Part shown: positions 28,601-30,584 of the stretch, piece by piece
Layout of the letters: every line of letters begins with the position of its first letter
Numbering within the stretch: the first letter of the stretch is position 1
Assembly: GCF_001677475.2 (NCBI RefSeq)
Contig: NZ_CP015229.1
Strand: one strand, 5' to 3'
From: Escherichia coli
Lineage (GTDB): Bacteria > Pseudomonadota > Gammaproteobacteria > Enterobacterales > Enterobacteriaceae
Length of the DNA: 64,000 bases
Position numbers: made by a program

Positions 28601-30584
28601 CCGGAAGGCGACCGCTGGGTCGAAGCTCGGGAGAGCGATCAGCAGGCGGCAAAACGCTGGTAGTTTTTTGTTAGCCGGATCAGGCACCGCTGCGTCCGGC
28701 AATTTCACCGCTCAGTACATGCGTTTACGCTGCGTCGATGCACAGCCTCATCATTTTGCAGTATCCTTAAGATATTCCTTATATCTTCAGGAGATCGTCA
28801 TGGACAGATTCCCACGTTCTGATTCAATTGTACAACCCCGGGCTGGCTTGCAAACTTATATGGCGCAAGTCTATGGCTGGATGACCGTTGGCTTGTTGCT
28901 GACCGCATTTGTTGCCTGGTATGCGGCTAATTCCGCGGCCGTGATGGAGCTGTTGTTCACTAACCGTGTCTTTTTAATCGGTCTGATCATCGCGCAATTA
29001 GCATTGGTTATTGTGTTATCAGCAATGATTCAAAAGCTGAGCGCAGGTGTAACGACGATGCTCTTTATGCTTTATTCGGCGCTGACGGGTCTTACGCTTT
29101 CCAGTATTTTCATTGTCTATACCGCTGCTTCTATCGCCAGTACTTTCGTCGTTACTGCCGGGATGTTCGGCGCAATGAGCCTGTACGGTTACACCACGAA
29201 GCGCGATCTAAGCGGCTTTGGCAATATGCTGTTTATGGCGTTAATCGGCATTGTGCTGGCATCGCTGGTCAACTTCTGGCTGAAAAGCGAAGCGTTGATG
29301 TGGGCGGTTACCTACATCGGCGTGATTGTCTTTGTCGGATTGACGGCGTATGACACGCAGAAACTGAAAAATATGGGTGAGCAGATTGATACCCGCGACA
29401 CGTCGAACCTGCGCAAATATTCCATTCTTGGCGCGTTAACCTTGTATCTGGACTTCATCAACCTGTTCCTGATGTTGCTGCGGATCTTCGGCAACCGCCG
29501 TTAATTCTTTTTTCACCATCAATATCCCGGCCATGTGTCGGGATTTTTTTCTTACGAAAAAACGACACTTAACAAGTACCAGGTATAAAATATGCCTTAT
29601 GAGCGAGCGGAAGCGTTTTCCGTATCCATAAATAAAAAAGTATTTTGTATGCGTGGCTTTAAATTTATTGATGATAAATATTAATGTTTTTTCTAAGGAC
29701 AACTAAAAGAATGGAATCATACTCGCAAAACAGCAAAAAATTAGATTTTCAGCACGAGGCCAGGATATTAAACGGCGTATGGCTTATTACCGCTTTAGGT
29801 TTGGTGGCAACCGCAGGACTGGCCTGGGGAGCTAAGCATCTCGAAATTACGGCAACAAAATATGATTCACCGCAAATGTATGTCGCCATAGGATTATTAT
29901 TACTTTGTATGTATAGCTTAAGTAAGGATATCAACAAGATAAATGCCGCCATCACGGGCGTAATGTATTTGTTTTTAATCTCTTTGGTGGCGATTGTCGT
30001 TGCAAGTTTAGTTCCTGTACCTGCCATTATCCTTGTGTTCAGCACTGCGGGCGCGATGTTTTTTATCAGTATGCTGGCCGGTTTATTATTCAATGTTGAT
30101 CCTGGTTCTCACCGTTTTATCATTATGATGACGTTGACAGGGTTGGCCCTGGTAATCATCGTGAATGCGGCATTAATGAGTGAACGGCCCATTTGGGTAA
30201 TAAGTTGCTTAATGATTGTGTTATGGTCAGGCATTATCTCGCATGGACGAAATAAGCTCCTTGAACTGGCGGGGAAATGCCATAGTGAAGAGTTGTGGAG
30301 TCCGGTTCGTTGCGCTTTTACAGGTGCATTAATACTCTATTACTATTTTATCGGCTTCTTTGGGATACTTGCAGCAATAGCGATAACGCTTGTCTGGCAA
30401 AGGCATACGCGTTTTTTTCATTAGTCGTAAAAAATAGGTAAGTTTCTCTTTTGGGAAAAATGCGTGTTAATGGTTTTTATATAACCTCATGAATAAAATC
30501 GTGAAGAAATGTAGTGAGGCTGATGCGCTATGCTTAGCCGGTACTGACTGGAATTGTAAACTATTAACTGAGTCCGGTTGTGTT

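Follow-up and report, generated by a model that had tools for sequence, protein, structure and literature searches.

The locus moaABCDE-ybhL-ybhM-ybhN-clsB-ybhP of Escherichia coli contains two neighboring genes of the Bax inhibitor-1 (BI-1) family, and the question that it raises is whether ybhL and ybhM are a duplicated pair or two genes with separate histories. We studied this question in a stretch of 64,000 nucleotides from contig NZ_CP015229.1 (assembly GCF_001677475.2), hereafter the window. Both genes are encoded on the plus strand, ybhL at 28800-29504 (234 aa) and ybhM at 29711-30424 (237 aa, preceded by the Shine-Dalgarno sequence TAAGGA at 29694-29699); the span of 28800-30424 that the first-pass annotation had given for an adjacent pair of BI-1-like genes is exact. 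Both products match the Pfam family PF01027 (Bax1-I, cut-off 34.1 bits), YbhL with an E-value of 1e-62 (212 bits) and YbhM with an E-value of 9e-19 (68.5 bits), which places the latter within the BI-1/TMBIM family as well. The two are likely to be old, diverged BI-1 genes, namely a core ybhL and an accessory, H-NS-bound ybhM that is situated in a variable islet.

The identity of YbhL, a core inner-membrane protein of the BI-1/TMBIM type, is 72-100% across 80 species of Enterobacterales, and we used it as the anchor for scanning a collection of Enterobacterales genomes. Upstream of the gene is a sigma-70 promoter, TGCACA-17-TATCCT (28739-28767, plus strand), that exactly matches the published K-12 promoter; a constitutive promoter in the moaE>ybhL spacer has been reported for K-12 (PMC3946193). 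Downstream of ybhL, on the same strand, there is an intrinsic terminator (29524-29551), composed of a hairpin with an 8-bp GC-rich stem and a 5-nt loop (29524-29544; -11.6 kcal/mol, z -3.2) and a T7 tract directly after it. YbhL was aligned to Bacillus subtilis YetJ (4pgr) over residues 34-231, including the segments YD..Q and LYLDFINLF, and the di-aspartyl pair is kept as D185 and D218. In YetJ, this sensor is said to be the pair D171/D195 (TM6/TM7), reportedly from the work of Chang in 2014. The di-aspartyl motif of BI-1 channels is described in PMC9379554. By analogy to YetJ and human TMBIM6, the function of YbhL is most likely to be a pH-responsive leak or exchange of cations (Ca2+/H+) in the inner membrane.

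In YbhM, a divergent protein that probably has the BI-1 fold, the two sensor-aspartate columns are occupied by G and Y (SHGRN / LYYYFIGFF), so that both aspartates are gone; the second aspartate is missing throughout the YbhM-like clade, with the exception of one protein (P0079). The AF2 model of YbhM is confident (pLDDT 89.8, pTM 0.86) and consists of seven helices which, together with the end-to-end alignment of YbhL with YetJ, agrees with the earlier description of both products as 7-TM proteins. A comparison of the YbhM sequence with PDB chains gave no match even at E 10, and fold searches of the PDB with the model did not return YetJ. Many truncated forms of YbhM are present in databases, and our literature search on ybhM found table mentions only, with no functional study and no phenotype.

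Base composition separates the two genes. The GC content is 49.4% in ybhL and 42.6% in ybhM, and that of third codon positions (GC3) is 62.6% and 45.4%, respectively, as the first-pass annotation had anticipated in calling ybhM the more AT-rich gene and in naming equal composition as the finding that would speak against it. Across the open reading frames of the window, the mean GC content is 52.5% (sd 3.9) and the mean GC3 is 57.7% (sd 6.2); only one of the 50 frames is lower than ybhM. The genes ybhL and ybhM have almost the same GC1 and GC2 (with a low GC2 of 0.39 in each) but are 17 points apart in GC3; thus, the difference is located at third codon positions and not in amino-acid content. 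By codon bias, ybhM is ranked third and ybhL 27th among 51 genes, and the proportion of rare codons is 7.2% in ybhM versus 2.6% in ybhL.

The leader of ybhM (29560-29710, 151 nt, plus strand), which had also been singled out as unusually AT-rich, contains A/T tracts and has a GC content of 30.5%; only 1.1% of all 151-nt windows in the stretch are that low. It includes an intact sigma-70 promoter, ACGACA-16-TATAAA (29562-29589, plus strand), identical to the published K-12 promoter. The best local match of the leader to the H-NS high-affinity motif is found at 29662-29671, with one mismatch; however, a scan of the whole window for this motif gave 80 matches versus 66 +/- 8 expected, which is not above chance, and therefore the motif scan is uninformative. 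As delimited by blastn breakpoints and alignment, the leader and the first 11 codons of ybhM form a haplotype-specific segment (29552-29743, plus strand), the place of which is occupied in three-gene E. coli strains by 905 bp that include a third BI-1 paralog; the 3' part of 29552-29743 is weakly similar (66-69%) to the spacer between this third paralog and ybhM.

YbhL and YbhM share approximately 25% identity, the two genes have no DNA similarity, and in a neighbor-joining tree the proteins belong to separate, long-branched, deep clades. This combination of low identity and deep separation excludes a recent tandem duplication, the phylogeny that would have contradicted the first-pass annotation. 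The weaker HMMER matches of YbhM are YbhL-type and not YccA-type proteins. A search of 1.84 billion representative sequences with YbhM returned 79 matches, none of which exceeded 35% identity outside its own cluster or Escherichia, and the closest relatives are all within Enterobacteriaceae. Among the YbhM-like proteins of this one family, pairwise identity is 22-35%, compared to 83-90% for YbhL, and their alignment contains no conserved stretch of 7-10 columns. The dN/dS values are 0-0.04 for ybhL, indicative of strong purifying selection, 0.01-0.05 for ybhN and likewise 0-0.05 for moaE (except for one moaE pair that is based on 4 substitutions), versus 0.26-0.50 for ybhM, which evolves 10-30 times faster than ybhL.

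The region that separates the ybhL terminator from the 3' end of ybhN (29547-30666, 1.1 kb) has a GC content of 40.1%, compared to 52-53% in the flanks, and is missing as a block from a divergent Escherichia lineage (locus L015). Its right-hand boundary is the conserved gene ybhN (30673-31629, minus strand; Pfam LPG_synthase_TM), which is convergent with ybhM. In 37 of the 47 enterobacterial species loci that have both ybhL and ybhN, the gap between these genes is at most 150 bp (median 54 bp), and the similarity breakpoints at the islet edges are sharp. Because ybhL is directly beside ybhN in these 37 species, ybhM is considered to be part of a 1.1-kb insert. The absence of the islet from the Escherichia lineage and the short ybhL-ybhN gap in other species support the suggestion of the first-pass annotation that ybhM has a different evolutionary origin.

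The same junction holds other cargo: a PLD-domain protein with three tandem Sel1/DUF6396 lipoproteins in an Enterobacter species, a weak Phd/ParE-like pair (both matches below the Pfam cut-offs), a catalase with a lipocalin, and a phosphoethanolamine transferase. In E. coli, it contains one to four BI-1 paralogs, or copies that are deleted or disrupted by insertion sequences. Of 5426 E. coli genomes, 750 have a third paralog; four paralogs occur together at one locus, accompanied by DUF3969, which was the only Pfam match among the partner ORFs of the array. At least 80% of ybhM is covered in 4794 of the 5426 genomes (~88%), and a full-length gene is also present in E. albertii and the cryptic clades; an internal deletion and insertions of IS1, IS200 and IS5 were observed in the array, with deletions or IS elements in ~11% of genomes. 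YbhM-like genes nearly always adjoin ybhL (in Escherichia, Salmonella, Kluyvera, Pseudocitrobacter, Phytobacter and others), and family members are found elsewhere after guaBA beside a transposase (Salmonella) and beside a vgrG gene (Superficieibacter). We also considered whether unequal crossing-over of the third paralog with ybhM had produced a hybrid gene, and rejected this because neither the alignment nor the lengths of the spacers agree with it.

The spacer between ybhM and ybhN is also variable. A segment of 223 nt (30432-30654) is absent from K-12, so that the spacer measures 248 nt here versus 35 nt in K-12, and just 34 of 5426 complete E. coli genomes have the spacer in its full form. 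It should be noted that REP elements are imperfect GC-rich palindromes of approximately 35 nt that occur extragenically in many copies per genome. The palindrome at 30586-30615, some 160 nt past ybhM and within the segment missing from K-12, has these properties (-22.3 kcal/mol, z -3.9), and is the sole dispersed part of the spacer (by megablast, query positions 157-192 have as many as 8 locations in a genome); the Rfam family naRNA4, which is REP-derived, matches there with 35.5 bits, below the gathering score. Therefore, the statement that each gene is followed by a terminator or REP sequence is correct, with the intrinsic terminator after ybhL and the REP palindrome after ybhM. Neither the leader nor the spacer between ybhM and ybhN yielded a significant trace of other array genes; the only shared sequence is the last 18 nt beside ybhN, which also occur where a 73-codon gene of the four-paralog locus ends.

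The H-NS data are from K-12, SE11 and SE15, strains other than the one analyzed here. In K-12, Genomic SELEX identified the ybhL>ybhM spacer, with its sigma-70 promoter ACGACA-16-TATAAA, as H-NS-bound (PMC3946193), and ChIP-chip in MG1655 delineated the H-NS regions 819341-820122 and 820099-821010 (PMC3688515, Table S3), which together cover ybhM completely and extend over the spacer and half of ybhL on one side and the 3' end of ybhN on the other; the genome version of these coordinates was fixed by that paper's own label "820438 within ybhM". In addition, ybhL was flagged as H-NS-bound and predicted to be horizontally transferred (PMC4720273, S2 Table). The islet thus has the AT content and codon use, the patchy phylogenetic distribution and, from published K-12 data in vivo and in vitro, the H-NS occupancy of H-NS-silenced accessory DNA. 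Of the H-NS-type silencing that had been proposed for ybhM, binding over the gene and its leader is established for K-12, and repression is deduced from this binding: H-NS probably keeps the expression of ybhM low.

These observations can be combined into a single scenario, in which ybhL and ybhM would have diverged deeply and long ago within the BI-1/TMBIM family and would have had different population histories. The former would be a vertically inherited core gene, with its own promoter and intrinsic terminator and with the di-aspartyl sensor kept. The latter would come from a fast-evolving side clade restricted to Enterobacteriaceae, the nearest relatives of which are of the YbhL type, and would have entered as a 1.1-kb AT-rich islet at the convergent ybhL/ybhN junction, a site that appears to take up heterogeneous accessory DNA species by species and in Escherichia holds an array ranging from zero to four BI-1-like paralogs. 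H-NS on the AT-rich leader and the gene body, over the sigma-70 promoter, would result in low expression; low expression and the loss of both sensor aspartates would in turn leave the constraint on ybhM relaxed, not absent, and the gene would be repeatedly deleted, truncated or struck by IS elements.

Several other explanations should be weighed against this scenario. Ancient tandem duplication of ybhL in situ, in an enterobacterial ancestor, would require no horizontal transfer: the second copy would have been lost independently in most genera, and the retained copies would have drifted fast and with an AT bias. YbhL-type proteins form the sister group of the YbhM-like clade, and the near-constant location of YbhM-like genes directly downstream of ybhL, from Escherichia and Salmonella to Kluyvera, Pseudocitrobacter, Phytobacter and others, fits a duplication with many later losses as an alternative to insertion. 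However, clean-junction loss would be necessary in 37 of the 47 species loci, and the family members at unrelated loci (guaBA/transposase, vgrG), the sharp breakpoints, and the 22-35% identity within one bacterial family versus 83-90% for YbhL are all contrary to such a history, which we consider unlikely. A recent duplication of one BI-1 gene has a negligible probability: the genes are adjacent and share the Pfam family, the strand and a similar length, but the low identity, the lack of DNA similarity, the different clades and the different composition have already refuted it. The AT-richness of ybhM could also be a by-product of hydrophobic residues, uninformative on origin or regulation, inasmuch as both 7-TM proteins are rich in Leu, Ile and Phe and both genes have low GC2. 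This is highly improbable, given that GC1 and GC2 are nearly the same and GC3 is 17 points apart, that codon bias and rare-codon load are atypical for ybhM only, and that the non-coding leader is more AT-rich still.

It is also conceivable, although rather doubtful, that ybhM no longer has a function and that drift alone preserves it, on its way to loss, as the last gene of a once longer array. The raised dN/dS, the loss of both sensor aspartates, the deletions and IS elements in ~11% of genomes, the many truncated database forms and the lack of a phenotype in the literature are all consistent with decay. Conversely, a dN/dS of 0.26-0.50 is well under neutrality, the full-length ORF persists in ~88% of 5426 genomes as well as in E. 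albertii and the cryptic clades, and the AF2 model is confident. A dN/dS below 1 and the intact ORF in most genomes suggest that ybhM is not simply decaying, and an accessory gene under relaxed constraint is our preferred reading.

A more speculative proposal, to which we assign a low probability, is that YbhM-like proteins provide orphan immunity or resistance at the inner membrane to toxins that target membranes, e.g., type VI pore-formers. The ybhL/ybhN junction might then host a hypervariable array of BI-1-fold proteins without the aspartate sensor, up to four in tandem and in some cases accompanied by small cytoplasmic partners or Sip4-like membrane proteins, that provide orphan immunity against membrane-depolarizing toxins of type VI or similar systems; ybhM would be the single remaining, H-NS-bound member here, a conjecture that is just as improbable. 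The highly diverged paralogs, which form tandem arrays and are present or absent depending on the strain, point in this direction, as do the Superficieibacter homolog near a vgrG gene and the PLD-domain protein with tandem Sel1 lipoproteins at the same junction of an Enterobacter species. Two loci of Salmonella, one adjoining a TsiV-family gene, contain a conserved cassette of three genes in which a BI-1-like gene is accompanied by genes for two membrane proteins; these two proteins weakly match the NCBIfam model "immunity protein Sip4" (E 8e-8 to 3e-4), and Sip4 neutralizes the T6SS pore-former Ssp4 (PMC12669606). All of these points are by association, however, and the Sip4 matches score 21-32 bits versus a cut-off of 240. 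There is no effector beside ybhM in the window, and the junction also carries unrelated cargo (catalase, phosphoethanolamine transferase). YbhM matched none of the NCBIfam immunity and PADLOC defense models, the other paralogs and partners matched none of the PADLOC models, and our literature search found no paper in which Bax inhibitor proteins are connected to bacteriocins or immunity proteins. If true, this proposal would imply a role in interbacterial competition for a whole clade of uncharacterized enterobacterial membrane proteins and a new kind of function for the BI-1 fold.

Under the preferred reading of a core gene beside an accessory one, the locus is a textbook-style case of a core gene whose neighbor is an accessory paralog that evolves fast and is bound by H-NS. 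Both genes had been described before, as had the binding of H-NS, and the biology is fairly ordinary; the main correction is that ybhL and ybhM would not be a simple duplicated pair with a shared function. The label "Bax inhibitor-1/YccA family protein" on ybhM masks the loss of residues that the characterized channel mechanism requires.

The two genes can be compared with several known systems. Orphan immunity arrays (Sip4 versus Ssp4) are likewise composed of tandem, highly diverged membrane paralogs with strain-variable presence; however, YbhM is not similar to known immunity proteins and has no cognate effector nearby. Another parallel is with H-NS-bound xenogeneic or accessory islets, the pattern of which is described in PMC4720273: the ybhM islet is likewise AT-rich, atypical in codon use, patchy, faster in non-synonymous change and H-NS-occupied. 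It differs in being very small (1.1 kb, one gene), in having no integrase, tRNA or direct repeats, and in that the nearest relatives of ybhM are from the neighboring core gene's own family. With respect to YetJ and human TMBIM6 (BI-1), which are pH-sensitive Ca2+ leak channels, YbhL and YbhM both match PF01027 and seven helices are also predicted for YbhM, which has no sequence match in the PDB; YbhL shares both sensor aspartates, whereas YbhM has G and Y there. E. coli YccA, a substrate and modulator of FtsH, is encoded elsewhere, beside serT, and is 16% identical to YbhM and 23% to YbhL; it is also a BI-1 inner-membrane protein and has E and S at the aspartate columns. YccA works through its partner FtsH and not as a channel (PMC9379554, PMC7876416) and, being without the canonical aspartate pair, provides a precedent for a BI-1-fold protein that acts by partner binding.

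The tandem genes ybhL (28800-29504; 234 aa; Pfam Bax1-I, 1e-62) and ybhM (29711-30424; 237 aa; Bax1-I, 9e-19) lie on the same strand, flanked by moaE on one side and by the convergent ybhN-clsB-ybhP on the other, and both proteins exceed the curated threshold of this Pfam family. The first-pass annotation had placed terminator or REP sequences after each gene. We found an intrinsic terminator of ybhL at 29524-29544 plus a T7 tract (-11.6 kcal/mol, z -3.2) and a REP palindrome at 30586-30615, 160 nt downstream of ybhM (-22.3 kcal/mol, z -3.9), with a sub-threshold match to the REP-derived Rfam family naRNA4. 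The REP is the sole dispersed portion of the ybhM-ybhN spacer and is located inside a 223-nt segment (30432-30654) that is missing in K-12; the full spacer form with this segment is rare (34 of 5426 complete E. coli genomes). The locus (28700-30700) is unusually polymorphic within E. coli: the best identity among these genomes is ~97.4%, and identity over ybhM by itself spans 92.6% to 96.8% across the collection. An identical YbhM sequence is present on 58 public E. coli contigs.

The greater AT-richness of ybhM and its leader, noticed at first pass, was borne out by the composition analysis. The GC content of ybhM is 42.6% versus 49.4% for ybhL, and the gap lies in third codon positions (GC3 of 45.4% versus 62.6%), whereas GC1 and GC2 are near-identical between the two genes. 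Among 50 ORFs of the window, ybhM ranks second in AT-richness; its codon usage is the third most deviant of 51, with 7.2% rare codons, whereas that of ybhL is typical. The leader (29560-29710) has 30.5% GC, below 98.9% of windows of equal size.

Two other ORFs stood out in these rankings. The most AT-rich gene of the window (34.9% GC) is a 670-aa ORF at 41973-43985 (+). A SopA-like E3 ligase domain of the HECT type lies at its C-terminus (Pfam SopA_C, 7e-15) and suggests a gene akin to type III effectors within an inserted island; we take its flanks to be rhlE and dinG, by size and K-12 gene order alone. The most extreme codon usage, by a wide margin (B 0.75), belongs to a 173-aa ORF at 61499-62020 (+); high expression may be all that lies behind it.

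Using YbhL as an anchor, we fetched 80 species-representative loci, 47 of which hold both ybhL and ybhN. The ybhL-ybhN gap is 150 bp or less in 37 of these 47 loci (median, 54 bp), and in a divergent Escherichia lineage (L015) the segment 29547-30666 is missing as a single block. Inserts longer than 400 bp were found at this junction in seven loci, and their content is unrelated. The cargo includes YbhM-like arrays (Pseudocitrobacter, Phytobacter), a catalase with a lipocalin, a gene pair weakly resembling Phd/ParE toxin-antitoxin genes (both matches below Pfam cut-offs) and, in Enterobacter sp. BIGb0383 (L043, 8763-13553), a gene for a 611-aa PLD-domain protein with a tandem of three Sel1/DUF6396 lipoprotein paralogs behind it, a layout like that of T6SS effector-immunity clusters of the Tle5/Tli5 type. 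In Escherichia albertii (positions 9063-10724 of locus L016), the junction holds a phosphoethanolamine-transferase-like gene (CptA/EptA family, 37% GC) between ybhL and a truncated ybhM.

Escherichia genomes vary widely in this islet, from none (L015) through one paralog (K-12 and this window) to a three-gene form with ybhL, ybhM and a third BI-1 paralog (750 of 5426 genomes) and to four tandem BI-1-like genes, namely ybhL, the third paralog, ybhM and a fourth (GCA_002207125.1; L009, 1642-5299). The latter encode proteins of 234, 246, 237 and 232 aa, and a DUF3969 gene and then a 73-codon gene separate them from ybhN. Compared to E. coli, dS in this locus is about 0.5 for ybhL and only about 0.17-0.19 for ybhM and ybhN, which makes it a recombination mosaic. 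Between two- and three-gene haplotypes, the segment 29552-29743, i.e., the AT-rich leader and the first 11 codons of ybhM, is replaced. At least 80% of ybhM is covered in 4794 of the 5426 genomes, with deletions in the remainder, and insertions of IS1, IS200 and IS5 are also found at this locus.

YbhL and YbhM share about 25% protein identity. An exhaustive HMMER search of 1.84 billion representative proteins with YbhM returned 79 matches in all, none above 35% identity outside its own cluster. The closest relatives are without exception from Enterobacteriaceae (rare Escherichia proteins, the third E. coli paralog, Salmonella, Kluyvera georgiana, Pseudocitrobacter and Superficieibacter), and the weaker matches are YbhL-type proteins of many bacteria. 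Neighbour-joining placed the YbhM-like proteins in a long-branched clade of their own beside the YbhL type, and YccA fell well outside both. Across other sampled enterobacterial genera, YbhL retains 83-90% identity; their YbhM-like proteins have 22-35%. The refuting case named at first pass, equal composition together with a recent tandem duplication, fails: the two genes differ in GC3, and the low protein identity and the separate deep clades rule out a recent duplication. The YbhM-like clade may be an old ybhL duplicate later moved by recombination, as clean empty ybhL/ybhN junctions and YbhM-like copies at other loci favour; duplication in place followed by many losses may also account for the clade.

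Three published data sets show H-NS binding at this locus in strains other than this one. Genomic SELEX in K-12 placed an H-NS site in the ybhL>ybhM spacer, along with a constitutive sigma-70 promoter, ACGACA-16-TATAAA (PMC3946193), which is intact in the window at 29562-29589, as is the published ybhL promoter at 28739-28767 (PMC3946193). ChIP-chip in MG1655 reported H-NS regions at 819341-820122 and 820099-821010 (PMC3688515, Table S3), and a sigma-70 ChIP-seq peak at 820438, stronger aerobically, is labelled "within ybhM" (Table S2). With this label, the version of the published coordinates can be pinned against NC_000913.3; therefore, the H-NS span, at about 29030-30920 of the window, begins ~235 nt into ybhL, includes the spacer and all of ybhM and stops within the 3' end of ybhN. 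An IHF ChIP region in MG1655 (820002-820438; Table S4) overlaps the ybhM start and, together with the sigma-70 peak, is a possible sign of promoter-like activity within the AT-rich ybhM. In another study, ybhL was H-NS-bound in vivo and predicted to be horizontally transferred, and ybhM and ybhN fell short of the criteria for conserved orthologs (PMC4720273). The initial suggestion of a different origin and/or H-NS-type silencing is supported. The binding is published for K-12, and we infer repression of ybhM from it. The observation is real and was correctly read. It is already known: both genes have names in K-12, and published tables list the H-NS binding.

Nei-Gojobori dN/dS among five Escherichia haplotypes was 0-0.04 for ybhL, 0.01-0.05 for ybhN and 0.26-0.50 for ybhM; moaE was akin to ybhL and ybhN, except for one pair resting on only 4 substitutions. 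Aligned to B. subtilis YetJ, whose structure is solved, YbhL keeps both di-aspartyl residues (D185 in AYDTQ and D218 in LYLDFINLF), the motif regarded as sensing pH in TMBIM channels (PMC9379554). The corresponding columns in YbhM are G and Y, and the second aspartate is missing in nearly all of the YbhM-like clade. The AlphaFold2 model of YbhM is of high confidence (pLDDT 89.8) and has seven helices; PDB fold searches with it did not return YetJ, and a viral structure library returned TMBIM-related families weakly. The predicted BI-1 membership of YbhM at the fold level rests on the Pfam profile match. Most likely, ybhL is a core BI-1-type gene with a probable cation-leak function, as judged from YetJ, adjoined by a small AT-rich accessory islet whose sole gene here, ybhM, encodes a fast-evolving BI-1-fold protein without sensor residues; H-NS would coat the islet, and constraint on ybhM would be relaxed.

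The loss of the di-aspartyl pair is shared with YccA, which acts on FtsH and not as a known channel (PMC9379554, PMC7876416). In Salmonella, a BI-1-like gene and two genes for multi-TM membrane proteins form a conserved three-gene cassette, in one case at the ybhL junction and in another behind guaBA (S. enterica loci L005, 4001-5908, and L011, 3536-5900). All four partner proteins match NCBIfam Sip4 weakly (E 8e-8 to 3e-4, far under the cut-off); Sip4, located in the inner membrane, confers immunity to the type VI pore-former Ssp4 (PMC12669606). One cassette copy (in L012) adjoins a transposase and a TsiV-family gene. In Superficieibacter electus (L098, 6001-11275), a YbhM-like gene that is not near ybhL precedes a gene for an 864-aa protein without a family match, with vgrG coming next. 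That YbhM-like proteins would be members of orphan immunity arrays appears unlikely; the likeness to such arrays is purely one of association and lies in the Salmonella cassette with its partners that weakly match Sip4, the TsiV-family neighbour and the Superficieibacter homologue near vgrG, all of them in loci other than this window.
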